From a virus (taxonomy: Duplodnaviria; Heunggongvirae; Uroviricota; Caudoviricetes), in the IMG/VR virus record IMGVR_UViG_2529292998_000004, positions 1 through 50,094 of that record: a DNA stretch of 50,094 bases; one strand, given 5' to 3'. The notes under the pieces are model-generated. The model was not told where the DNA came from. It saw nothing but the letters and a program-made list of their open reading frames with translations, and ran no database searches. Positions 1,920 through 50,094 of the stretch are shown piece after piece. Each line of letters starts with the position of its first letter. Positions within the stretch are counted from its first letter, which is position 1. A program made the position numbers and the translations under genes.

Positions 1920-4894
1920 TATGCAAGCCTCACAATATAGTTAAATGCGATGTTTTTGACGGTGTTTTCCGCGTTACCAGCAGCGTTAACGGTGATGGTG
2001 TGTCCATGTGAACCAATCGCAACGGAGTGCGTATGTGCACCAATACCTACAGTATGTGCATGTGCGCCAGAACTTGCTGCAGTACCAGACAGCGAGTGGG
2101 TATGAGCACCTGCTGACTGTGTCTGAATACGTTGATAATACGATCTACGGGAAGAAGTCCCCGGGCTTACTTGATACTGTGAATCCTGGACATAAGTGAA
2201 CCCACCGCCATCATAAAATGCTAACGCAGAACCGCCGCCTCCTGGCCAACGAATACCATTACCATGAGTATGATCACCGGCAGACCCCGTAGAGCCACTC
2301 AGACTGTGCGTATGCGCCCCGGTGTTATTCGTGGATTTAGTGCCGTAATCAAACGACGATGTGGTTTTCGTCCCCAAATCCGTACTGGATGCGCTGGCGC
2401 TGTGGGTGTGCGATTTAATGCCGTCCTGTTCCTGAGACAATACGGCTCGATCACTGGCGGGCTTGCCCTTAATCGTCCAGCCACGCATATCAGGGATCAC
2501 GCCTGACGGATAAGCGGCTGCAAGTTTCGGGTATGCAGATTTGTCAAAAGTCTGCCCCTGCATCAGGGCATAGCCAGACGGAACGGTATCTGATGGCCAC
2601 GGGATTGGTGCGCCAGGCGGATAAAACTGCTCTGATGGCGTATAGAGTGAATAAACTGTACCGTCCGTTAACCCTTCCGGCTTATTAGCAGAATATGCTG
2701 GTGACGTATGAATCGTCACGCTGGCATTACTGGTATAATCCCATTGAATATTTACACCAGTCGCATAATTTCCGATTGCAACGTAAATATCGTAAGTATC
2801 ACCAGATGTATTGACCCAGGCAAAATTTGTAAACCCTGTCGATGTGCGCTGCCATAAAGCACCAGTAATCCCCTTCGGATTACCATTACCTGCACGCAAA
2901 ACAAGTTCAGATATACCTGCCTGTTGAGGTGACCCCACGTTAAATCCCGCACCACCAATCAACGTAATTGAAACAACAGAACTCGCCTGTGGCATGGTTA
3001 CCGTTGCTAATTTGAACCAACCAGCACCACCGCTGAATGACATTGTTGTTGAGTTAAGCGTACCAATATCTTTCGGCGTCAGTGTTATATCCGCTGAAAG
3101 CGCCTTACCATTCACCTTACGGGCAGAAGGTACCCGACCATTCGCATTATCATTAGCTGCTTTCACTGCTTTCGGTGTCGCGGCAAGCGTTTCAGATGCG
3201 CTGTTGGTTGCACTACTGAGCTGGACAATTCCTTTTTGTGCTGTCGTAGCGTCCTGAGCAGTATATTTCCCGTTAGCAAGGTCATAGGCTGCCTTTACCG
3301 ACTTTGGCGTTGCCGCCAGCATTTCAGATGTGCTGTTGGTCGCGTTGCTAAGCTGAACTATCCCTTTCTGTGCTGTCGTTGCATCCTGTGCGGTGTATTT
3401 CCCGTTAGCCAGCTCATACGCGGCCTTAACGGCTTTTGGCGTTGCCGCCAGTGACTCGGAAGTGCTGTTAGTCGCACTGCTGAGCTGTACTATCCCCTTT
3501 TTCGTCGTGCTCGCATCCTCAAGCGCCACGGCGGATGCAATATCCTCTGCCCGTTTTGCCGCTGTCTCAGCGCGCGTTGCCGCGGATTCCGCCGTACTTT
3601 TGCTCTGAGCTGCCGCCGTCGCACTGCCAGCTGCCTCTGTCGCCTTCGTGGATGCCGTCGTGGCGCTGCCCTTTGCTGCTGACGCCTGTCTGGTCGCCTC
3701 ATCTTTTGAAGCAGACGCAGATGATGCCGATGACGCCGCCGAACTGGCGGACGATGCGGCAGCCGTTTTTGAGGATTCTGCGCTGGTTTCCGACGCTTTC
3801 GCGTTCGTCTCGGATGTCTTCGCTGCGGAAGCAGACCTCGCTGCTGCGCTGGCCTGTACAGCGGCTTCGCCAGCCTTCGTTGTGGCTGTTGAAGCAGACG
3901 ATGCAGCACTTTCTGCCGATTTTCCGGCGGCGGTGGCACTGGCTGAGGCCTGCCCGGCACTTGTTGACGCGGCACTGGCAGATAATGCAGCCGCTGTTTT
4001 TGAGTCTGCCGCAGCTGAGGCGCTCTGTCCCGCTGCCGTTTCAGAAGACCTGGCGTTCGTCTCGGACGTTTTTGCCGCCTTCGCAGAATTTGCTGCCGCC
4101 GTTGCCGAGGAAGCTGCGCTGCTGGCGCTCGAGGCTGCGTTCGTTTCTGATGATTTTGCCGCCTCTTTTGAAGCCGACGCATCCCGTGCTGAAGTGGCTG
4201 CTTCTGACGCTTTCGTGGTCGCGGTGGATGCAGAAGTGGCTGCTGATTGTTGTGACGCTGCCGCATTCGTTTCTGACGTTTTCGCGGCACTGGCACTGGT
4301 AGCTGCCGCGCTTTTTGAGGACTCTGCAGCGGCAGCACTTTTCGATGCTTCACTGGCCTTTGTTGATGCCGCTCCTGCGCTGGAAGACGCTGACTGAGCC
4401 GACGACGCGGCCTGTCCGGCTGACGTGCTGGCTGCGCGTGCTGAGCCTGCAGCATCAGTCGCATGGGTTGCCGCCTCACGGGCTGATGTGCGGGCATCGC
4501 TGGCTGACTTCTTCGCGGCTGCCGTGTTCTGTGCCACTGCGGACGCGTTACGCGCCACCTCTTCCACCATCAGTTCAAAACGGCGCAGTGCCTCTGGCCG
4601 GACATCATCCTCCGTCATTGCACCGAGGAAATCATTCAGTGTGCCCGGCTTTGAGTCCTCATATACGGTGATAATCCCGGCGTGTGACGGCGGGAATCCC
4701 TCCACCAACAGACTGACGCTGTACTGACCATACTCGACGTCCATTGTATAACGCCCGGCTTCATCCGGATTTTCTGAGGCCACTGTGTTCACCACCACCG
4801 TGGTGCTGTTGCGCCTGGCCTTTAGCTGAATGGTGCAGTTTTGTATCGGCTTACCTGCACCATCTTTCAGTACACCTGAAATCAGTACTGCCAT
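1919..4894 (-). CDS. stf: Side tail fiber protein Stf
   Basis: 991 aa; N-terminus [38 protein letters not shown]... matches lambda Stf from memory; long Ala/Ser/Thr-rich central region; C-terminal His-rich GAHTHS-type repeats and [10 protein letters not shown] end. Confidence 0.9.
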
Positions 4895-4903
4895 ATTCCC
4901 CCC

Positions 4904-4932
4904 ACAAAAAAGCCCGCCTGAACCGGCGGGCT
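4904..4932 (-). terminator. Rho-independent terminator downstream of lom
   Basis: GC hairpin AGCCCGCC..GGCGGGCT followed on the minus strand by a U-run. Confidence 0.5.
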
Positions 4933-4958
4933 GTCATAACACTGTGTTACCTGGCTAA

Positions 4959-5558
4959 TCAGAATTTATAGCCGACACCCACGATGAAACTGTTGGTACG
5001 CCAGTCACCACTGCCGGAGCCTTCATAAGCAATATCAATGGCCACGGATTCGGTCGGGTTAAACTGCACGCCAGCCCCCCACGCCAGAGACGTGTTGCTG
5101 TGGCGACCGTCATCACTTCCGGTCAGCACATCGTGCGTTTTCCCCTTGCTGTCAGTTACACGGAGATAATCCCCGGAAAAAGTCGACACACGACTGTAAG
5201 TCACACCCGCCATCGCATACGCGCTGAACCATTCATTCACGCGCACAGACGGCCCCGCCATCACGCTGAACCAGCGGTTACGCACGGAATCTTCATGCCA
5301 GCGGGTATCGCTGTAATGCGTTTTTTGCTCATCTTTGGCATTGGCATAACTGAATGACGTCACCAGCCCCAGCGTGTCCGTAAACTCATAACGGTATTTC
5401 ACGTTAATCCCGTTCAGATCATCGCTGCCTGGCATATCAGTATGGGTCTGAAGATACCCGGCGCTTAGTGTGGACTGATGCTCTGCTGCGCTCGCTGGCA
5501 TACCAGCGGCAACCAGCCAGACTACTGCGGACAGAATAACAGCACATAATTTACGCAT
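4959..5558 (-). CDS. lom: Outer membrane protein Lom (Ail/Lom family)
   Basis: 199 aa with signal peptide and beta-barrel-like sequence ending GVGYKF; located between J and stf as in lambda. Confidence 0.9.
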   Translation of the reverse strand: MRKLCAVILSAVVWLVAAGMPASAAEHQSTLSAGYLQTHTDMPGSDDLNGINVKYRYEFTDTLGLVTSFSYANAKDEQKTHYSDTRWHEDSVRNRWFSVMAGPSVRVNEWFSAYAMAGVTYSRVSTFSGDYLRVTDSKGKTHDVLTGSDDGRHSNTSLAWGAGVQFNPTESVAIDIAYEGSGSGDWRTNSFIVGVGYKF

Positions 5559-39110: not shown

Positions 39111-39602
39111 TCACTCTCCTTTGATGCGAATACCAGTGGTACTCATTATCCTGATTTCCCAGAGCACACGAGGAACACCACCGTTTCCGACTGGATCGCG
39201 TTTACTCCGCAGGGCGACGCTTGATTCCGCCCAGCTTTTTCTTGGAGGAAGCGCTTTCACACGAACAAAACCAGCTGCGCGAAGAGATGCTCCTGATTCA
39301 TCTGCCCGGGTGTACGTAATACAACGTTGATAACCCATAGCTTTTGCTGCCCGCCAGACAGCACCATAAAGCGCGCTGTTAGCGTTGCGTTCTCCTGTGG
39401 TACATGTGCGATTTACTTCAAGCGTTAATCCATCATCCAAATGTCGTGCAACAGGTCGACCGGCTGTCGCCACACCTATCAATTCTCCGGCATCATTTCT
39501 CAGACCAATGCTGAATTTATGCCCCACCGGGGGTTTATTGTGTCGGTGATGTCTGGATATAAACGCCTTCGCAACACGAAGAGTAACCGGTGAAATTTGC
39601 AT
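39111..39602 (-). CDS. Hypothetical protein (163 aa), possibly GNAT-like fold; second gene of variable-locus operon
   Basis: Start MQISPVTL.. 3 nt after upstream stop with same AAGGAGAG coupling sequence; C-terminal ..ESGASLRAAGFVRV resembles GNAT motif B (inference only). Confidence 0.55.
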   Translation of the reverse strand: MQISPVTLRVAKAFISRHHRHNKPPVGHKFSIGLRNDAGELIGVATAGRPVARHLDDGLTLEVNRTCTTGERNANSALYGAVWRAAKAMGYQRCITYTRADESGASLRAAGFVRVKALPPRKSWAESSVALRSKRDPVGNGGVPRVLWEIRIMSTTGIRIKGE

Positions 39603-39604
39603 TC

Positions 39605-40180
39605 TCACTCTCCTTTGATGCCAATGTTTACAGACTGGCAAGCCTCTTTGAGCACCCAGTCAACAGCGTCTTTCCATGCTCCGGTTTCGACTGGCGGATT
39701 CTCACGCTTTACCTGTTCATAGAAACGCACCGCTCTAACCAGTCCATCTGACGGTTTTGCCTGTAGTGCAGCCTGAGCTATGCGGTATGCCTGGAGCATA
39801 CGGGCGTCGTTGGCTTTTTTGCGGTTGATGTTGGCTATGTCCGGCTGTGCGTTTGTGTCGAAATACTCGCTCAGTGGCAGGGTGACAACCACATCCACCT
39901 CCTGTGGCGTGATGCCTGATTTGACCAGCGCGTGATGAATGGCAATGACATTCACATCGCTGTACTGGTATTGCGTGTCAGTCGTCTGGACAAAGCGATC
40001 GCTGACCGGATCAAAACCATAGCGCACGCCATCAAGCATGTAGTTCGCGGGCTGCGTGCCACCGAACGGCGCAGACCATTCCGACTTGAAGCTGTTCGGG
40101 CTGATGGCGTTGCGGCGTTCGCCGTTCTCAGTCCATGCCAGCTTGGTGTTGGTGGAGCCGTCATCGATACAAATTTTCAT
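39605..40180 (-). CDS. ParM/StbA-like actin-fold ATPase N-terminal domain protein (191 aa, truncated relative to ParM)
   Basis: MKICIDDGSTNTKLAW...ISPNSFK.EW...FG.....Y.L.G..Y.FDP.S...V.TT....QYSDVNV.A.HHAL..SG....EVD.V.TLPL.EY.D.N.QP...NI.RKKAN closely tracks the N-terminal ~140 aa of plasmid R1 ParM as remembered; remainder unrelated. Confidence 0.6.
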   Translation of the reverse strand: MKICIDDGSTNTKLAWTENGERRNAISPNSFKSEWSAPFGGTQPANYMLDGVRYGFDPVSDRFVQTTDTQYQYSDVNVIAIHHALVKSGITPQEVDVVVTLPLSEYFDTNAQPDIANINRKKANDARMLQAYRIAQAALQAKPSDGLVRAVRFYEQVKRENPPVETGAWKDAVDWVLKEACQSVNIGIKGE

Positions 40181-40211: not shown

Positions 40212-40320
40212 TTTACGGGATTCTGAAATCCCGTTTTTGCCTGTTTTATGCGCGCTTCATATATCGCGGCGCGTTTTTTGCTCATTTACGGGATTTGTGA
40301 ATCCCGTTTCTGTCTGTTTT
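40212..40320. repeat. Two ~36-bp direct repeats, each containing a hairpin (ACGGGATT..AATCCCGT), flanking the stop codon of gene A
   Basis: TTTACGGGATTCTGAAATCCCGTTTTTGCCTGTTTT at 40212..40247 and TTTACGGGATTTGTGAATCCCGTTTCTGTCTGTTTT at 40285..40320. Confidence 0.6.
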
Positions 40321-43079
40321 TTGTTTCCACTGGTCAGGCCACCCCGCAGCAGGTCTGCTTTGCGGCGGGCGCGTTCAGTGGTTTCACTGATTCTCTGTGC
40401 GTGCTCTGCGTCGCGGATGGCGCGCAGCATGTCAGAAAGCACGGTAACGGGTGTTTTCATGGTGTTCTGGTCTTGCTGAAGTGTGGATGCCAGGCGTGCG
40501 GCGGCTTCGGGGTCTGATGCCCTCAGCTGTTCCAGATAGCTGGCGACCGGGTTATGGCGGATCTCCGTACTGCTTACGCCGTGGTTACGGCTCAGGCGCT
40601 GCCAGAGCTGCGTGATCCGGCTGTCCGGTCGGGTATCCGGTTTGCGTACAATTTCAAATCCCTGCGGTGCAATGATGCTGCCGTCAACGTACAGACTGCC
40701 GCCCCGTAACAGGTGCTGCATCTGCTGTTCACCGATATGCAGGCCGAGAGATTCGGCAGATTCCCGCCATTCTTTAGCGAGTAATTCGTGGTTATCAGGC
40801 AAAGGCCGCTGCTGTTTGCGGCTCTGTGTCCAGCTCTGCATTTCATCACTGCTGTTTTTTGCCTGTTTGTCACGAAGCGAACGCATCAGCGCCCGGCGTT
40901 CGTGCCGTTTCAGTGAGCGCATCCATTCGTTCACGTCAACGCCGTCAGGAAGCTGCGGCCACGGTGCTGGCCGTTCTTCCGGCTGTTCTGTCCCGTTGTT
41001 GTCCGTTTCCTGTACACGGGGACAGTTATTGCCACGAGTCCAAGGGGCGGCAGGGCCGCCCTGAAGGTCAAAACCATTTTCGTGGGCGTTGTCTTCTGGT
41101 TCTGGTTTACGTCTTACCAACTTCCAGTTATCCGGATGCGTGCACACACGGGAGGATTCCCCGATGAGTGGTGACCAGATCCCGTAAATCTGTACGCTCT
41201 GTTCGCCGTAATCGTTCAGCTCATCTGCGAGGTCGTAGGCGGTGCGAATCAGGTAGTCCTTGCGTGGAACAAGCGCGCCACCCTGTTTTTCAATGTAGGT
41301 GGCAAAACACCCGGCATCGGCGGCAGCGAGTACCGCATCCATTGCATCATCTTTCAGCCGTTGCGGGCCTTCCGGATTGCGTGCCATCTGGCTGGCAAGG
41401 CGGCGCAGTTCACGCCACACCTGACGGGAGGGGATGCCAAAGAACTGGAACTGACGGACCCGGTGAAGGCGCGCCCAGCCGATGGCGCGCTCCACGCTCT
41501 CGGCCATTGATTTTCCGGTTTCGTGGTCAACGCGTGGCTTGCCCGTTTTCGGGTCGATGCCATCCACGGCGCGGCTGTCCAGGTTCTTTCCGATGTAGGT
41601 GGCGATGTAGCTGGTTGGTGTGCCTTTTGAGCCGTCGACATACTCCGCCTTAAAACGCGGAGTTATGTCATCGCCCAGCTCGTGGCGGTCCTCCTGAATG
41701 GCAATATCGCAGACGTGGGACACGATGGTTTCAATCTCGTCCGGATGTGCAAAGACCATCATATGCCAGTGCACAGTGCCGTCATGGTGAGGCTCCACCG
41801 TGCGGATGCCATACCAGCGCAGGCCGTCGCGGTTCAGTTTTTTGCGGACCGCCGCAAAAAACGTGTTAACCAGGTAATCGCTAGAGTCGCGCATGGTGGC
41901 CCCGTTCCATTTGGGGTTCGGATGACCGTTCTCCGTTGTTGCGTGGTATTTTGACGGGCAGGTAACGGTCAGAAACACCGCTCTGTCGCTACGGGCTTCG
42001 GCCAGAAGTTCCAGTCCCTTCATGGTGGCCATCATTTCTGCCTTACGGTGAACCGGGTTACTTACTCCCGCGTAATACACTGTCTCGAGATCAATCGTGA
42101 ACCCGTCTTCATTTTCCAGCATGAAACTTTTCAGGAAATCGCGTGTTTTCTCGCGCTGTGCGCGAAACTCGCTTAACGCGTCCTGGCTCAGATAGGGCGA
42201 TGTTTTTCTGGAAACCAGACAGGCGGCGCGGAGTTGTTCTTCCCGCCACTCGCAACGTAACAGCCACAGTTTGCGTTTCCACCATTCCGCACAGGTCAGG
42301 CGAAGGATTGCGCCCGGCAGCAGTTCTGTGTCCGGTTCGTTCCTCCGGTCTTTGTCTGTTGTCAGTGCGTCATAATGCGGAGGCATGGCGTGCAAGTGTA
42401 ACGCCATGCGGGCTAGCATCTGATACGCCTTCAGCGTTACATCCATGGTCAGCTCGCCATCAGTCGCGCCAAAACCATCGCAGAGTTTTTCGAAGGTGCT
42501 GCTGAACATCGCCGCCGTCATGGTGGCCAGCGTCTGTATCTGGTGTTTGTTGAGTTGCGGCAGGTAAAGCAAATCGTCCAGGCGTTCGCGTCCGGCAAGG
42601 GACCGATAACCCGGTGTCAGCCAACGGCTGTCGGTGCGGTCCAGACGTACGAATATTTTGCGCAGGGTTCCGCGCGCGTAGCGTTCAGCCTGCCAGCTCT
42701 TTTTGCCTTTCTGGCGATCGGCTTCCTGTTTTTTGCGCAGGAAGGAGAGGTGGCGAATAAGCGGATCGCGCAGATAGGACGGCAGCAGGCGCAGCGAGGC
42801 CATGGCTTCATCCACCGCGCCGCGTGCCTGTTTTCTGGCGTCTCCTGCCAGTGTGATGGTTTTGTCCTGTTTTTCCTGTGCGTCCAGGTTTTTATTAATC
42901 AGGTTGCCCAGCGGCGTTGCGGAGAACGCCGCATCAGCCATTTCCTGGCGGCGCTCGTTCTCTGCCCGGTAGGCATCCAGCCAGGAGGAAAGCGCGGATT
43001 CAGGTGCGGGGATCCCCGTTCCTTCACGCCCCACTGCGTGGCGCGGTTGTTGCCAGTCCCTGATGTACTCTGCCGTCAT
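40257..43079 (-). CDS. P2 gpA-like replication initiation endonuclease (HUH rolling-circle Rep), 940 aa
   Basis: HUH motif (..GTVHWHMMVFAH..) and paired active-site tyrosines (..SYIATYIGKN..). Confidence 0.8.
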   Translation of the reverse strand: MTAEYIRDWQQPRHAVGREGTGIPAPESALSSWLDAYRAENERRQEMADAAFSATPLGNLINKNLDAQEKQDKTITLAGDARKQARGAVDEAMASLRLLPSYLRDPLIRHLSFLRKKQEADRQKGKKSWQAERYARGTLRKIFVRLDRTDSRWLTPGYRSLAGRERLDDLLYLPQLNKHQIQTLATMTAAMFSSTFEKLCDGFGATDGELTMDVTLKAYQMLARMALHLHAMPPHYDALTTDKDRRNEPDTELLPGAILRLTCAEWWKRKLWLLRCEWREEQLRAACLVSRKTSPYLSQDALSEFRAQREKTRDFLKSFMLENEDGFTIDLETVYYAGVSNPVHRKAEMMATMKGLELLAEARSDRAVFLTVTCPSKYHATTENGHPNPKWNGATMRDSSDYLVNTFFAAVRKKLNRDGLRWYGIRTVEPHHDGTVHWHMMVFAHPDEIETIVSHVCDIAIQEDRHELGDDITPRFKAEYVDGSKGTPTSYIATYIGKNLDSRAVDGIDPKTGKPRVDHETGKSMAESVERAIGWARLHRVRQFQFFGIPSRQVWRELRRLASQMARNPEGPQRLKDDAMDAVLAAADAGCFATYIEKQGGALVPRKDYLIRTAYDLADELNDYGEQSVQIYGIWSPLIGESSRVCTHPDNWKLVRRKPEPEDNAHENGFDLQGGPAAPWTRGNNCPRVQETDNNGTEQPEERPAPWPQLPDGVDVNEWMRSLKRHERRALMRSLRDKQAKNSSDEMQSWTQSRKQQRPLPDNHELLAKEWRESAESLGLHIGEQQMQHLLRGGSLYVDGSIIAPQGFEIVRKPDTRPDSRITQLWQRLSRNHGVSSTEIRHNPVASYLEQLRASDPEAAARLASTLQQDQNTMKTPVTVLSDMLRAIRDAEHAQRISETTERARRKADLLRGGLTSGNKKQTETGFTNPVNEQKTRRDI

Positions 43080-43085
43080 AGTGAT

Positions 43086-43451
43086 TTACTTCGTCATGCC
43101 ATTCAGGGTGTCGCGGCAGACTGTAGCCAGCCGCTGAATTTCCAGCACGGTGTCTTCTGTGTCGGCATGGCGATGTGTGATGCGGATGCTGTCGGCAATC
43201 ACATCGACGATTGCAGAGGATGGGCGCTGGTAAATGCCAATAACGGACGGGGTGCCACCTTCAATGCGGTAAAGCCTGTAATTTCCCTCGTGGCTGTCAA
43301 TCATGTAGCGACCATCAATAACAATCTTTCCGTCAGCGAGCTGCGGTACAGGCAGGGATTTCAGGTACATGTCATAACGATCACGCACGCGAGCGGCAAG
43401 ATCACGTTCTGTGTTGAGCAGGTATTCAAGAAAGTCGTTGGCGAGAATCAT
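43086..43451 (-). CDS. Hypothetical protein (121 aa) immediately upstream of A
   Basis: ORF with stop 7 nt before A start. Confidence 0.5.
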   Translation of the reverse strand: MILANDFLEYLLNTERDLAARVRDRYDMYLKSLPVPQLADGKIVIDGRYMIDSHEGNYRLYRIEGGTPSVIGIYQRPSSAIVDVIADSIRITHRHADTEDTVLEIQRLATVCRDTLNGMTK

Positions 43452-43523
43452 TGCGGCAATCCTCTTGTTACAGATGTGCGAAGGCCTCCCGCCGCAAGGT
43501 GCAGGAAAGGCCCGGAACAGGAA

Positions 43524-43754
43524 TTAATGGAGTTTGTTTTGCTGCTGGAAGAGTTGTTGCAGCTCGCGCAGATCATCCGCCAGATAGCTGAAAACAGAGG
43601 CGGAATAGATGTTCGATAGCGCGTGGCTGCGCTCATGCAGCATATTGATGTGCATGATTTGCGCGACGCGTGATGCGCGGAAAAGTCTACGGTTGATTTC
43701 AGTCTGGATGTGACGACGCTCCGCGATAGCGCGGCGCTGTTTGCGGTTTGCCAT
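43524..43754 (-). CDS. Hypothetical small basic protein (76 aa)
   Basis: ORF MANRKQRRAIAERRHIQTEINRR..; overlapping 206 aa ORF in another frame judged spurious. Confidence 0.4.
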   Translation of the reverse strand: MANRKQRRAIAERRHIQTEINRRLFRASRVAQIMHINMLHERSHALSNIYSASVFSYLADDLRELQQLFQQQNKLH

Positions 43755-44090
43755 GGTGTGGCCCCTTGTGTAGTAAGTTGTGAAAACTCACCATCCAGAG
43801 CTGCGAAACTGTGGGTGGCGAGACGTACGAGGTTCGCAGTACCGGCTACACAAGAACCCGGCCCGACCGAAGTCGGCCCCGTACGCCCCGCCATAATTCT
43901 GACGCGAAAAAAACGTGGCAATACAGTACGCACAAAAAAACCGCTGGCGCGGTTGTGCGCTTGTGTAGTCAGCAGGCTGCGAAACCCGGCACCCGTTTTG
44001 TGAGGTGCAGCGGAAATGTAACCTGACTGATTGCGGCATGGCAAGCGGTTTTTTTGTGAGAACGGCATACTAAAAAATCCTGATACTGCT

Positions 44091-44115
44091 CCGGCCAGCG
44101 GTTTTCACTGGCCGG
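44091..44115. other. Stem-loop CCGGCCAGCGG..CACTGGCCGG just downstream of SPFH gene (weak terminator)
   Basis: 10 bp inverted repeat; U-run not adjacent on minus strand. Confidence 0.35.
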
Positions 44116-44121
44116 GTTTAA

Positions 44122-44952
44122 TTACTTCACCGGAACAAACGGAACAGCGGTGTTACTGGTCATGTATTGCGGTAGCGTGCCGTTCCATTTGTTAATCGCT
44201 TCCAGCTCCATAACGCCGGGATTCTGGCGCAGAGCTTCGCCGCGTAAACGAATGGCGTCGGCTTCAGCCTGGGCTTTTGTGCGAATGGCATCGGCTTGTC
44301 CGGCAGCTTCTGCGCGCAGCATGTTGGCTTCAGCTTCGCGTTGCTTGACTTCCTGTTCACGTTGCAGGGTTTTCTGGTTTGCCGTGACTTTGGCGTTAAT
44401 GCTGTCGATAACGGTTGGCGGATATTCCGGTTTACCGACATAAGAGAGGCTCATGACCTGAATACCGATGGGGGTCATTTCTGCCTGAATATCTTTAAGT
44501 GCTGAATCCAGCAGTTCAGACTTACCACCGTCGATAAACTTATCGGTGGTCATTTTGCTGGCCAGTCGGTTGAGTGCATCGGCGATCTTCTGGCGCAGGT
44601 CAGTGTCGGTAATGTCGTCCACGCCTTTGCGGTAGGTCTGAAACACCGTGGTAACTTTGGATGGATCAACTTTGTAGGCCACGCCGATGTGATAGCCGAT
44701 GGTTGTGCCGTCACTCATCTGAAAGCTGAACGGCTCATCGTAGGTCTTCATTTGTTTGAAGGTCGGGAAGATGTAAACCTCGGTATTCCAGCCAGTCCAG
44801 TAGCGACCAACGCCAACCACTTCGCCAACGCCTTTGTCGTCGCCCAGCTTGTTGACTTTGATGCCCATATTACCTGGCTCAACGCGATCGCAGCCAACCA
44901 GCAGGATGGCGGCAAAAAGCGGGAGAATCTGAAAGAGTCTGAATTTCTTCAT
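44122..44952 (-). CDS. SPFH/band-7 (prohibitin-like) domain lipoprotein
   Basis: 276 aa; lipoprotein signal MKKFRLFQILPLFAAILLVGC; SPFH-like core; C-terminal coiled-coil rich in Ala/Glu/Gln. Confidence 0.75.
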   Translation of the reverse strand: MKKFRLFQILPLFAAILLVGCDRVEPGNMGIKVNKLGDDKGVGEVVGVGRYWTGWNTEVYIFPTFKQMKTYDEPFSFQMSDGTTIGYHIGVAYKVDPSKVTTVFQTYRKGVDDITDTDLRQKIADALNRLASKMTTDKFIDGGKSELLDSALKDIQAEMTPIGIQVMSLSYVGKPEYPPTVIDSINAKVTANQKTLQREQEVKQREAEANMLRAEAAGQADAIRTKAQAEADAIRLRGEALRQNPGVMELEAINKWNGTLPQYMTSNTAVPFVPVK

Positions 44953-45152
44953 TGTTTAATTTCCTTGATGTACTTACTGAAAAGGCGAACAACGCCTGCC
45001 GGGTACAGCATGGCAATGAAAATGCCCAGCAATACCAGGAAGGAGCTGTCTGATGAAATCATTCGGGGGAGTACCCCTACATACAGAATGAGAGAGACGA
45101 GGACGCATACCAGCGCCCATGCATATGCACGAAACCATGTCTTGTTGTTCAT
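44949..45152 (-). CDS. Small two-TM membrane protein (67 aa) translationally coupled to SPFH gene
   Basis: Start MNNKTWFRAYAWALVCVLVSLILYVGV..; ATGA overlap with SPFH start. Confidence 0.5.
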   Translation of the reverse strand: MNNKTWFRAYAWALVCVLVSLILYVGVLPRMISSDSSFLVLLGIFIAMLYPAGVVRLFSKYIKEIKQ

Positions 45153-45162
45153 GTTGCGGCCC

Positions 45163-45459
45163 TTACTGGTTAAGGAAAAAATCGAAAACCTTGTCAATGC
45201 GTTGCAGCAGCTCTTGCTGTATTGCTTCCGGCGTTTCCGGTTCGCCTGGCGCCTCCAACGTCGCGCAGAAATCAGCGATTTCATGATGGAGTGTCAGGCG
45301 AATGGCAGGGGCCGTGGTTCTGGCGTGCTCCAACTCATCCAGCAGTGCCAACACCACTGACGGTTGTAAGCTCACGCGAGATGGTAGTGATTCATGGGGG
45401 GGTATTCTTTGCACGGCAGTCGCCAGTTCGCGTAGTTCCTGGTGGTTGATGATGCTCAT
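45163..45459 (-). CDS. Hypothetical protein (98 aa)
   Basis: ORF in early operon, overlaps neighbours by 4 nt. Confidence 0.45.
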   Translation of the reverse strand: MSIINHQELRELATAVQRIPPHESLPSRVSLQPSVVLALLDELEHARTTAPAIRLTLHHEIADFCATLEAPGEPETPEAIQQELLQRIDKVFDFFLNQ

Positions 45460-45707
45460 GCTCTGGCTTCCTTCAGTAACTGGTTAAACATATTGGTAAG
45501 TGGATTGCCGCACCCGAACGGCATCGGGTTTACCTGGTAAGAGAAGCGACCACCTGTTTTGCGCTCTTTTCTTATGACTGAACCGCTACGCCAGAGTCGG
45601 CGTAACTCCGCATTAATAGCTGTGGTTGGGGTATTCAGTGCTGCGGCGATTTCTCCACCGCTACACCCCGGATTGGCGGCGATATAGTCCAGAATGGTCA
45701 TCTGCAT
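45456..45707 (-). CDS. Putative winged-helix DNA-binding protein (83 aa)
   Basis: MQMTILDYIAANPGCSGGEIAAALNTPTTAINAELRRLWRSG.. helix-turn-helix-like pattern. Confidence 0.5.
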   Translation of the reverse strand: MQMTILDYIAANPGCSGGEIAAALNTPTTAINAELRRLWRSGSVIRKERKTGGRFSYQVNPMPFGCGNPLTNMFNQLLKEARA

Positions 45708-45904
45708 GACTCCTGTACCTGTCGGATAAGGTTCACCCGCACCACGTTGGTGGCGCAGAAGTAAGTGCCGTCAGTGAGGTAGATGTGGTGTGCATCCTTT
45801 TCTGAACGGTGTTTGTCGATTGTGGTAATCAGGCGTTCGTCGACTTCGTATTCACGTCCTCTGGAGGTAAAACGAACGACAGGAAAGTGCTTAATTGCCA
45901 TTGC
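45698..45904 (-). CDS. Hypothetical protein (about 68 aa from internal Met)
   Basis: ORF in early operon. Confidence 0.4.
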   Translation of the reverse strand, partial: AMAIKHFPVVRFTSRGREYEVDERLITTIDKHRSEKDAHHIYLTDGTYFCATNVVRVNLIRQVQESCR

Positions 45905-46208
45905 GCCCACTGTTCTGTTTCTGGCGACGGATGCGGGATAGCTGGATTTCCAGCTCTTCAATGTGGTCGTGCAACTCGTCTATTTCGGCGAAAAGCGAAT
46001 CAAGGGTTGATGAGAGTTCCGTTAACAGGGCCTTTGCCGCCAGTGCAACAGTAAACGTGCCGATGTCGCGTTCCGGGTCAATTTCACTAACAAGTGTTCT
46101 GGTTAGTTCAAGAGCGACGGGGAGCGCCTCTTCCAGTTTGCAATCCTGGAGATGAGCAAGAATAGTTAATGCGTCGCATTGAATTTTGTCTTCTTTATTT
46201 TGTTTCAT
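45891..46208 (-). CDS. Hypothetical coiled-coil protein (105 aa)
   Basis: ORF in early operon. Confidence 0.45.
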   Translation of the reverse strand: MKQNKEDKIQCDALTILAHLQDCKLEEALPVALELTRTLVSEIDPERDIGTFTVALAAKALLTELSSTLDSLFAEIDELHDHIEELEIQLSRIRRQKQNSGRNGN

Positions 46209-46408
46209 CGTTGCCGCCTTATTTGAATGTACAAAGCCCTCCGCGAGTGCGGATTGTTTTCATGTTTTCTTATTTAATCGTGTGTTTTATTTGTGCTGTT
46301 ATTCTTCAGTGAAAAAACGCTCAATCTTTTTTACTGAATGAATAATTCGCACAATGCCAATTGCGCAGACCACTGAAATAATCAGAACAATCCATGACAT
46401 AAATATAC

Positions 46409-46651
46409 TCATGCGATATTCCCCAGCTTATACGGTTCAATATGTTCTCCGCATTCTGCGGCACAGATCAGCTCGGAAAGTTCGTTAAGTGCATCCAGAT
46501 CATCAGCGTAAAAAGCCACGTCATACAGACTCCGGATTGCCCTGGTCAATGAGTCACGGGCTGCACGTTCAGCATGAACGCCTGATGCGCTTAAGCGAAA
46601 ATAAAAACGCTCAAGTGCTTTGTTGATGAGTGTTTTATATTCTTTGTCCAT
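46409..46651 (-). CDS. Hypothetical protein (80 aa)
   Basis: ORF in early operon. Confidence 0.45.
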   Translation of the reverse strand: MDKEYKTLINKALERFYFRLSASGVHAERAARDSLTRAIRSLYDVAFYADDLDALNELSELICAAECGEHIEPYKLGNIA

Positions 46652-46662
46652 TGCAACACCCT

Positions 46663-46941
46663 TTAATCTGCTTTCTGGATTTCAGCTTCTGAATCCATGC
46701 AAATAATTTCGATATAGGGTTCATTGCCATTAACCTGACGTGCCTTTTCAGCTTCGCTAATGATTTCGCGTACAGTCTGGTACGGAAGTTCTACGGTCAG
46801 GCGCGTGCCGTTCAGATAAACGTAAGTAGCTGCATTTTTTTCGGATGGAACAACTCCGTCAATGGCTGATGCGCGTAATAACAGTTCACCGCGAAAATCA
46901 ACAAAACGGATAAATACACCTTGTGCATGCTCTTTGGTCAT
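46663..46941 (-). CDS. Hypothetical protein (92 aa from internal Met)
   Basis: ORF in early operon. Confidence 0.45.
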   Translation of the reverse strand: MTKEHAQGVFIRFVDFRGELLLRASAIDGVVPSEKNAATYVYLNGTRLTVELPYQTVREIISEAEKARQVNGNEPYIEIICMDSEAEIQKAD

Positions 46942-49032: not shown

Positions 49033-49101
49033 CTCTACACATTGAGCGAATTACATATCGCAAGGAGTGTTTAGTTAATTTATCCGTTGGAGGGGCTAAT
49101 C

Positions 49102-50094
49102 ATGTCGATTAAGCAACTCAAAGACGGACGTTATCAGGTCGATGTCAGACCGCAGGGGGCGGAAGGAAAGCGGATTCGAAAAATCTTTGCCCTGAAATCA
49201 AAGGCTCAGGAGTTTGAGAAGTATGTGTTACAGAACTTTCATGACAAGCCATGGCAGGCTAAGCCAGCTGATCAGCGGCGATTATCAGAGCTGCTTGATG
49301 CGTGGTGGATGCTTGATGGGCGTAATCAGGCTTACGGGGATAGCTACAGGGTTAGGCTAGGGAAGGTTGTTCGTGAAATGGGAGATCCTCGCGCCAGTCA
49401 GATGACGCGAAAATTTATGCTTGAATATCGGTCAGAGAAATTACAGGCCGGATTAATGCCGTCCAGTATTAATCGTGACTTATGCGTACTGTCTACCATG
49501 TTCACGGTGCTGATTGAAGCTGAGGTCTTTCACAACGCGAACCCTGTACGCGGTATACGAAAACTGAAAGTTCAGAACACAGAGATGGCCTTTCTTTCTG
49601 ATGATGAGATTGAACGGCTTCTTGAGCGACTGGAGGGTGATGCGCGTCGTGTTGCCATTCTGTGTCTTTCTACTGGTGCCCGATGGAGTGAAGCATCGGA
49701 ACTACGTGGAGAGCATATCGTTGGCAACCGGGTGACGTTCTTTAACACCAAAAACGGAAAATCCCGTTCGGTTCCTGTGGCGGATTCGGTCGTGCCTCTG
49801 ATTAAAACCCGTCGAACGGGGTTATTGTATCAGGTTGATTATCTGAAGTTCCGGGAGATTCTTCAGGAGGTGAAACCGGATTTGCCGAAGGGGCAGGCTA
49901 CGCATGTCATGCGTCATACATTTGCCACACACTTTATGATGAATGGCGGAAATATTGTTACGTTGCAACGAATCCTGGGGCACGCAACGATTCAGCAAAC
50001 AATGACGTACGCTCATTTTTCGCCGGACTTTTTACTGGACGCGATCAACTTTAATCCGCTGGCTGAAAGTGTCCATAAACTGTCCATCGATTAG
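49102..50094 (+). CDS. int: Tyrosine integrase, P2 Int family
   Basis: Start MSIKQLKDGRYQVDVRP.GAEGKRIRK.F..KS.A..FEKY.L.. and C-terminal ..LCLSTGARW.EA..L......TF..TK..K.R.VP......GQATH..RH.FATHFM.NGG.I.TLQRILGH...QTM.YAHF.P.. match P2 integrase as remembered; GGAGGGG RBS. Confidence 0.9.
   Translation: MSIKQLKDGRYQVDVRPQGAEGKRIRKIFALKSKAQEFEKYVLQNFHDKPWQAKPADQRRLSELLDAWWMLDGRNQAYGDSYRVRLGKVVREMGDPRASQMTRKFMLEYRSEKLQAGLMPSSINRDLCVLSTMFTVLIEAEVFHNANPVRGIRKLKVQNTEMAFLSDDEIERLLERLEGDARRVAILCLSTGARWSEASELRGEHIVGNRVTFFNTKNGKSRSVPVADSVVPLIKTRRTGLLYQVDYLKFREILQEVKPDLPKGQATHVMRHTFATHFMMNGGNIVTLQRILGHATIQQTMTYAHFSPDFLLDAINFNPLAESVHKLSID

Follow-up and report, generated by a model that had tools for sequence, protein, structure and literature searches.

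We describe here a two-gene cassette from the early region of a P2-type, P88-like (Xuanwuvirus) prophage, carried on 50,094 nucleotides of viral DNA (Caudoviricetes; IMG/VR record IMGVR_UViG_2529292998_000004, positions 1 to 50,094), a stretch that we refer to as the window. The downstream gene specifies a 276 amino acid (aa) predicted lipoprotein with an SPFH (Band 7) domain, and the upstream one a 67-aa protein with two transmembrane (TM) helices, hereafter called the partner. On balance, we favour the interpretation that the cassette encodes a two-part inner-membrane complex, in which a lipid-anchored SPFH cage would be combined with the helical hairpin of the partner. The two-gene arrangement is far beyond chance and recurs in distant lineages. 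An initial annotation, made without database searches, had pointed to an SPFH lipoprotein with a long C-terminal coiled coil, coupled by an ATGA overlap to a 67-aa two-TM protein; both open reading frames (ORFs) are present at the coordinates collected in Table 1, and the several parts of that description are borne out by the analyses reported below.

The N-terminus of the SPFH protein, MKKFRLFQILPLFAAILLVGC-DRVEPG, has a positive n-region, a hydrophobic core and the lipobox LVGC, which agrees with the pattern [LVI][ASTVI][GAS]C and places Cys21 directly before an Asp residue at +2. The signal peptide and this cysteine support, at the level of the sequence, the designation as a lipoprotein. 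The lipobox Cys is invariant in two alignments, one of phage homologues (A2) and one of the natural fusions described below (A5). Asp at +2 is an inner-membrane retention signal in the Enterobacterales, as established for E. coli, and it was found in 102 of the 108 close enterobacterial homologues with a detectable lipobox.

The SPFH fold was corroborated in three ways: by Pfam, by a profile run against the PDB sequences, and by an AlphaFold model searched with Foldseek. The match to Pfam Band_7 (PF01145; E=1.8e-30) reaches 106.7 bits against a cut-off of 23.6 and covers residues 23–209, corresponding to profile positions 2–176 of 176; a match to PHROG 200 'lipoprotein' was found at E=9e-111. 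The AlphaFold model (mean predicted local distance difference test, pLDDT, 73.8) contains strands over residues 20–95 and 164–176, and the coiled coil noted initially corresponds to one continuous helix, residues 179–243. This helix aligns with the coiled-coil regions of HflK/C and prohibitin, and is the predicted counterpart of the coiled coil that forms the wall in SPFH cages. In Foldseek, the model gave full-length matches to the cage subunits erlin1/2, HflC/HflK, PHB1/2 and stomatin (E ~1e-13 to 1e-11; probability 1.00 over 240–300 columns) at 14–18% identity. By itself the window protein gave a weak HflK match among the PDB sequences; a profile of ten phage homologues reached prohibitin-2 (1e-10), QmcA (2e-7), HflK (4e-7) and HflC (9e-6), and prohibitin-1 as well. 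Towards the C-terminus lies a KWNGxLP pattern, of which K255, W256, G258 and P261 are invariant over the 10 phage homologues, with identity down to 30%. It has low pLDDT in the monomer model; its conservation makes it a candidate oligomer-cap element, and is compatible with a cap while proving nothing.

The HflK and HflC equivalogs were both missed, at 22.8 bits for TIGR01933 hflK (cut-off 159.4) and 24.8 bits for TIGR01932 hflC (cut-off 134.4). An adjacent pair of HflK/HflC-type paralogues, each with an N-terminal TM anchor, is absent from the locus. Only one SPFH gene is present; its product starts with a lipoprotein signal peptide, and the neighbouring gene encodes the hairpin. In the Stx2 and phiP27 records the SPFH gene is labelled 'serine protease'. 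We rejected this assignment, since no protease family is matched, only Band_7; the label is probably a legacy of the naming of HflC.

The partner consists of two hydrophobic helices with positive charges at both ends. It matches PHROG 1130 'membrane protein' (E=1.6e-20) and no Pfam or NCBIfam family. When the 67-aa sequence was searched singly only close E. coli relatives were reached, and an alignment was needed for wider reach; a first hidden Markov model (HMM) was built from six partners, and the broader profile is an alignment of 31 diverse partners (A3). The resemblance to the bacterial pairs of SPFH proteins with small membrane partners, to which the initial annotation had drawn attention, holds as regards adjacency, common strand, co-translation and fusion, and fails as regards the nature of the partner, which is not NfeD-like. 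Pfam gave no NfeD match to the window partner even at E≤0.1, and among the 31 diverse partners none matches NfeD at E≤0.05, nor any Pfam family consistently. NfeD identity was rejected on these grounds and because a protein of only 67 aa, filled by two TM helices, has no room for the NfeD OB-fold (PF01957). Judging from these profile searches, the partner is a separate, uncurated family. The window protein has the features that describe this family, namely a length of ~60–80 aa, two TM helices, a proline motif and a position directly upstream of an SPFH lipoprotein gene. The sole invariant column in the 31 sequences is Pro29, at the end of TM1, and is followed by x-L-[IVF]-[SN]-x-x-[DS]. The hairpin is predicted to be N-in/C-in, with its conserved loop facing the periplasm, because of the positive-inside rule, the topology of the fusions and the annotation of the Pylas protein as '2 TMDs N in C in'.

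Stop codon of the partner and start codon of the SPFH gene share the sequence ATGA, which indicates translational coupling of the two genes. For the partner, we prefer the 67-aa start because AAGGG lies 8 nt from ATG 45152 and because 67 aa is the length annotated in phage P88; a 111-aa version starting at ATG 45284 is unlikely, as it overlaps the ead/Ea22-like ORF.

SPFH homologues were located by TBLASTN in 643 of 50,697 phage records. Among the carriers of the gene are strictly virulent groups (N4-like, rV5-like, Bruynoghevirus, Kayvirus, Enterococcus Schiekvirus, phiCbK-like, Lak megaphages, haloarchaeal tailed viruses and AR9). A match to the partner HMM is the gene next upstream of SPFH in the N4-like phages Pylas and Pokken, Burkholderia phage phi1026b, Rhizobium phage IC12 and Prevotella phage Lak-B4, and one gene further upstream in the rV5-like phage GAP31. 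In all, 6 of 13 diverse phages possess the partner, and among close viral contigs it is directly upstream in 78 of 78. Stx2 phage carries an unannotated 62-aa two-TM ORF which overlaps the SPFH start by ATGA, belongs to PHROG 1130 and is 22% identical to the window partner. A scan of bacteria, using one genome per GTDB species, yielded 80 diverse loci of which 78 were usable; with the broader profile (A3), 53 of these have the partner directly before the SPFH gene, and in two more the genes are split by IS1. The negative loci are mainly those of distant SPFH lipoproteins from Asticcacaulis and Phenylobacterium. The modal spacing between the two genes, over 67 related loci, is a 4-nt overlap. 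The search was also run in reverse: a Band_7 gene lies just downstream of each of five partner homologues found with the profile, one of these genes being frameshifted. Non-phage chromosomal sites also harbour the pair, beside sdh/frd in Leptospira, HMG-CoA reductase in Saprospirales and gyrB in a sphingomonad.

Between phages, mature SPFH bodies are 95–97% identical and their hairpins 22–45%. Given this unequal divergence, any contact between hairpin and SPFH protein must depend on the few residues of the loop that are conserved, and it may be the hairpin that varies and faces the target.

A number of further observations were made at these loci. In Shigella flexneri and E. coli chromosomes (L098/L099, ~4236–5004), an IS1-like element of ~770 bp has entered precisely at the boundary of partner and SPFH gene, so that the two are uncoupled in those strains. 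Two sphingomonad loci (L145, 1382–4520; L180, 468–2365) have genes for an SMC_N/AAA_23-type ATPase and an OmpA-domain protein preceding the pair, and may represent a larger conserved envelope operon. The partner ORF is unannotated in Stx2_EH2201 (L003, 3467–3655) and Pokken (L089, 1296–1508), and the 359-aa 'lipoprotein' of IC12 (L090, 1261–2340) is apparently an over-extended call spanning the partner plus the SPFH protein.

In many lineages the two parts occur as a single polypeptide. A phmmer search over 1.84 billion representatives returned 219 clusters with E≤1e-30, rising to 936 with E≤1e-10, and the best 150 representatives were examined. In 17 of these 150, a significant partner domain and the SPFH domain occur in one ORF, and in 16 of the 17 the order is hairpin, charged linker, hydrophobic stretch with the lipobox Cys, and SPFH domain. 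Such 'Rosetta-stone' fusions argue that the two products act as one unit, and they are compatible with one topology only, in which the hairpin is N-in/C-in and the SPFH body lies outside. In the AlphaFold model of one such fusion (pLDDT 80), three helices at the N-terminus precede an SPFH core that is predicted with confidence. Signal peptidase II might cleave the fusions into two products again at the lipobox that they retain. The remaining fusion (P0253) is reversed, with the SPFH domain preceding the partner; its hairpin topology would be inverted, and it was treated as doubtful. In-frame two-TM N-terminal extensions in L120, L161 and L127 were not significant against the partner HMM and were not counted as fusions.

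The cassette behaves as accessory DNA. In phage PhiR44_2, the sequences equivalent to window positions 43432–44058 and 45142–45907 are contiguous (L002, 3355–3359), and BLASTN with alignment of the junction revealed that exactly 44059–45146 is missing; PhiR44_2, vB_EcoM-569R5, vB_EcoM-705R2 and P884B11 all match the flanks only. Among 5426 complete E. coli genomes the whole cassette is present in 145 and the empty junction, counted with a synthetic query joining both flanks, in 955, so that ~13% of such sites are filled. The initial annotation had regarded the pair as cargo, an idea that would have been undermined by universally conserved core genes with a replication role; the clean 1.09-kb indel, 145 filled against 955 empty, agrees with cargo and not with such conservation. 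No signal of foreign DNA is evident in the base composition of the cassette, which is 51% GC as compared to 53% for the prophage (window 17000–49000) and 46–58% for neighbouring segments. The SPFH coding core (44155–44901) has ~92% DNA identity with lambdoid Stx2a/Stx2d-converting phages and with phiP27, where it sits between xis/int and the leftward early genes, and ~76% with ~110-kb plasmids; some version of this core occurs in 576 of the 5426 E. coli genomes (~10%). The recombination breakpoints between the P2-type and Stx2-type (Stx2_EH2201) versions fall just past the lipobox and ~10 codons before the stop codon; the unit of exchange is the mature SPFH body, without signal peptide or hairpin.

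We propose that the SPFH protein would be lipidated and held at the periplasmic face of the inner membrane, as are HflK/C, and would oligomerise into a dome over a patch of membrane containing hairpins, with approximately one hairpin per subunit. The cassette would be transcribed with the early operon, so that the complex is made after infection or induction, and the complex would fence off or stabilise the membrane patch, or a client protein within it, to the benefit of the infected cell. We infer a role that is neither a replication function nor that of a known defence system. As to expression, the upstream ORF ends too close to the partner to leave space for a promoter, and a crude consensus scan of the coding strand over 45150–46830, ~1.7 kb upstream, detected no sigma-70-like site. 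The P2 early promoter is repressed in the lysogen. Because the pair lies in the early operon without a predicted promoter of its own, and by analogy with P2, it is probably made after infection or induction and silent in the lysogen.

Several points weigh against this proposal. Lipidation, oligomerisation and contact between hairpin and SPFH protein are all predictions, and the formation of a cage is extrapolated from solved relatives with only 14–18% identity. Confidence in the monomer model is moderate, with a poorly predicted C-terminus, and to say that the complex organises a membrane patch is a generic statement. The number of promoter-scan hits in the region was not above that of shuffled controls, and with so crude a scan the lysogen may still express the pair. 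No partner is found beside the SPFH lipoproteins of Asticcacaulis and Phenylobacterium, and PaP4, Roscha1, CcrSwift and Kayvirus have a different small membrane protein upstream, or none, so that not every SPFH lipoprotein needs the hairpin.

The initial annotation suggested superinfection exclusion or abortive infection, and an anti-phage role is the alternative that calls for most discussion. An envelope complex would block incoming phage DNA at the inner membrane or trigger abortive infection, in the manner of T4 Imm/Sp, P22 SieA or HK97 gp15, with the fast-evolving hairpin setting specificity. The patchy accessory distribution with its clean indel, the envelope location and the early-gene position would all suit such a role, as would the moron-like mosaic spread of a core sharing ~92% DNA identity across P2-type and Stx2/phiP27 phages and also found on ~110-kb plasmids; the category of PHROG 1130 is 'moron, auxiliary metabolic gene and host takeover', and divergence is much quicker in the hairpin than in the SPFH body. 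That body itself, however, is strongly conserved rather than diversifying, the operon should be repressed in the lysogen and no separate promoter for the pair was predicted, and the pair resides in non-phage chromosomes (Leptospira, Saprospirales and a sphingomonad) too. Neither protein matches a model in PADLOC-DB v2 (the SPFH protein has no match, and that of the partner, to PDC-M18B, spans 20 residues and scores 14 bits at E=0.008), and our literature search found no paper linking an SPFH protein to exclusion. The module is also common in strictly virulent phages, which is not decisive since virulent phages encode exclusion proteins as well; exclusion during lytic growth is possible. With PADLOC, the virulent phages and the chromosomal sites lending no support so far, we regard exclusion or abortive infection as unlikely. 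A bolder version, in which the pair is an undescribed, widespread two-component membrane-cage system for the early protection of the inner membrane of the infected cell, either excluding competing phage DNA or shielding against pore-forming abortive-infection effectors, with the SPFH protein as scaffold and the hairpin as specificity determinant, strikes us as distinctly unlikely.

A mimic of HflK/C, that is, a periplasmic cage which captures or displaces FtsH and so alters phage regulators or membrane proteins in the lysis-lysogeny decision or in host takeover, has been put forward as a proposal in several phage genome papers. It would lie on the predicted membrane side of HflK/C, both of which are among the best sequence and fold matches, and solved SPFH cages are typically tied to membrane proteases, as in HflK/C-FtsH and QmcA with its NfeD partner (7vhp, 7wi3, 8z5g). 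We consider it very unlikely, given scores far under the equivalog cut-offs, the higher score of prohibitin, a single SPFH gene instead of an HflK/HflC pair, a lipid anchor in place of a TM helix, frequent occurrence in strictly virulent phages, for which a lysogeny decision does not arise, and no residue-level evidence of FtsH contact. Perhaps the cage keeps the energised inner membrane stable, or holds back holin-type proteins, and so acts in lysis timing by preventing premature lysis, SPFH proteins being generally tied to membrane integrity. In Staphylococcus Kayvirus, mbpS and the gene for the holin-like one-TM protein MbpV directly follow the holin and endolysin genes, yet MbpV is a different protein from the hairpin, and the pairs of the window, N4-like, rV5-like, Stx2 and Bruynoghevirus phages are situated among early genes, far from the lysis cassette; this role appears highly improbable. 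Barely credible, lastly, is a surface or virulence lipoprotein of lysogenic conversion, acting through vesicle release and TLR2 sensing. The SPFH core is indeed present in Stx2 prophages of O157:H7, but Asp at +2 predicts retention in the inner membrane, virulent phages and environmental bacteria commonly carry the gene, and TLR2 activation is a general property of bacterial lipoproteins. For the HflK/C-like protein PM0222 of a Pasteurella multocida prophage, vesicle release and host TLR2 sensing have been reported (PMC9872710); its homology to the window family is unconfirmed.

Among known systems, the closest is Escherichia phage P88 (Peduoviridae, Xuanwuvirus), whose gp11 and gp12 form the pair in the same position, between the ead/Ea22-like and derepression-protein genes. 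The window from 43700 to 45500 has 92.9% DNA identity with P88 over 1.8 kb, the SPFH proteins are 98.9% identical, and P88 annotates the pair as 'membrane protein' and 'lipoprotein / putative SPFH domain protein'; no function has been reported for these genes. The pair itself differs in nothing of substance; the immunity region of the window's prophage is unlike that of P88. With HflK/HflC-FtsH (PDB 7VHP, 7WI3, 9CZ1) the window protein shares SPFH1/2 domains, a long coiled-coil helix, a C-terminal cap region and the predicted periplasmic side, but identity is 17%, there are two paralogues as against one gene, and the window has a lipid anchor in place of the TM helix, along with the 67-aa hairpin partner. 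The best profile match (prohibitin-2, E=1e-10) and fold matches are to prohibitin PHB1/2 and erlin1/2, which likewise face the non-cytosolic side of a membrane; these are hetero-oligomers of eukaryotic organelles with an N-terminal TM or hydrophobic anchor and no separate hairpin subunit.

QmcA faces the cytoplasm, whereas the window SPFH protein is predicted to be periplasmic. The SPFH-NfeD operons (QmcA-YbbJ, PDB 8Z5G; YqiJ-YqiK; B. subtilis FloT/FloA-NfeD) resemble the window in co-transcribing an SPFH gene and a gene for a small membrane protein, and fused forms occur in the window SPFH family too; the window partner differs in having neither NfeD nor an OB-fold and no Pfam match. In Kayvirus (phages K and 812) an overlapping small membrane-protein gene, mbpV, precedes the SPFH gene, mbpS. 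MbpS, 24% identical, has its own TM anchor and no lipobox; MbpV is a 102-aa holin-like protein with one TM helix and no match to the hairpin HMM, and the pair is beside lysis genes. T4 Imm and Sp, T5 Llp, P22 SieA and HK97 gp15 are small envelope products of accessory early phage genes. The likeness to them is a functional analogy only; no relationship to phage exclusion proteins was detected, the PHROG matches being to 'lipoprotein' and 'membrane protein', with no PADLOC match. The literature on phage SPFH genes consists of passing mentions and of suggestions concerning FtsH/CII or adsorption, and we found no experimental function in it; a survey of Pseudomonas SPFH proteins (PMC13086221) makes no mention of lipoproteins or phages. 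The P88 genes are already deposited and annotated, and the phage SPFH family has often been noted. The hairpin partner, non-NfeD and uncurated, and its recurrent fusion to the SPFH lipoprotein appear to be undescribed.

Table 1. Features of the cassette and its surroundings, in window coordinates
Feature	Position	Strand	Basis
Integrase	49087-50094		Pfam
AAGGG Shine-Dalgarno sequence of the partner, 8 nt before ATG 45152; overlaps the stop codon of the ead/Ea22-like ORF	45160-45164	minus	sequence
67-aa helical-hairpin membrane protein (partner)	44949-45152	minus	ORF, PHROG 1130
Accessory cassette (ribosome-binding site, partner ORF, SPFH ORF, 3' hairpin), ~1.09 kb	44059-45146	minus	blastn, junction alignment
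Partner loop motif P29-R-M-I-S-S-D-S-S, between TM1 and TM2	45042-45068	minus	alignment of 31 partners
AAGGAA Shine-Dalgarno sequence of the SPFH gene, 9 nt before ATG, within the partner 3' end	44961-44966	minus	sequence
ATGA overlap, partner stop / SPFH start	44949-44952	minus	sequence
276-aa SPFH (Band 7) lipoprotein	44122-44952	minus	PF01145, PHROG 200
Signal peptide (aa 1-20), lipobox Cys21 (codon 44890-44892), Asp22 at +2	44887-44952	minus	sequence
SPFH domain proper (aa 23-209)	44326-44886	minus	Pfam envelope, model core, Foldseek
Long helix (aa 179-243), 65 residues	44224-44418	minus	DSSP on model
C-terminal motif K-W-N-G-T-L-P (aa 255-261), KWNGxLP pattern	44170-44190	minus	conservation
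GC-rich hairpin CCGGCCAG-9 nt-CTGGCCGG, cassette 3' end	44091-44115	.	sequence

The placement in a P2-type early region, another claim of the initial annotation, was verified from the neighbouring genes. A GPA replication protein (40257–43079; Pfam, E=1.9e-128) and the integrase are nearby, as are a 'derepression protein', a MarR-like winged helix-turn-helix protein, the ead/Ea22-like ORF, DUF4754 and DUF4761. Directly downstream of the SPFH gene, on the minus strand, Rfam identified the isrK small RNA (43934–44008, 64 bits) and a C4 antisense RNA (43811–43898, 83 bits), after which comes the derepression-protein ORF (43524–43754, PF25738); these look like a P1/P7/P4-style RNA-controlled antirepressor module within the P2-type early region. 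The 206-aa ORF at 43448–44068, which extends over the two RNAs and whose equivalent is a coding sequence in the PhiR44_2 annotation, is probably spurious. The hairpin at the 3' end of the cassette was flagged by the scan on the plus strand only; on the minus strand, where the T-run starts 12 nt past the stem, it would be a weak terminator at best. A further small indel of the early region is found at 45907–46215, ~300 bp which include most of a 105-aa coiled-coil ORF (45891–46208) and are absent from P88.

Downstream of the replication gene, at 39111–40180 on the minus strand, where P2 has its tin/old hotspot, a 191-aa ParM/StbA_N ORF (E=4.5e-64) overlaps a 176-aa ORF with a weak match to the Mom family (E=1e-4); the two may be a truncated or frameshifted cargo gene. 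Between 1 and 16000 the window contains long ORFs on the minus strand (1158, 991 and 857 aa), and Rfam matches an IS009 RNA there (1378–1576). This suggests a separate lambdoid tail module beside the P2-type prophage, in which case the window would hold two prophages or a composite.

For annotation, these results mean that the partner ORF has been overlooked in several deposited phage genomes and that the 'serine protease' labels are unfounded. SPFH proteins such as prohibitin, stomatin, flotillin and HflK/C form membrane cages in every domain of life, and their bacterial roles are poorly defined. The recurrent fusions and the conserved coupling make a direct complex of hairpin and SPFH protein a concrete, testable prediction, and P88-type prophages with and without the cassette constitute natural isogenic-like material on the role of a viral SPFH cage.

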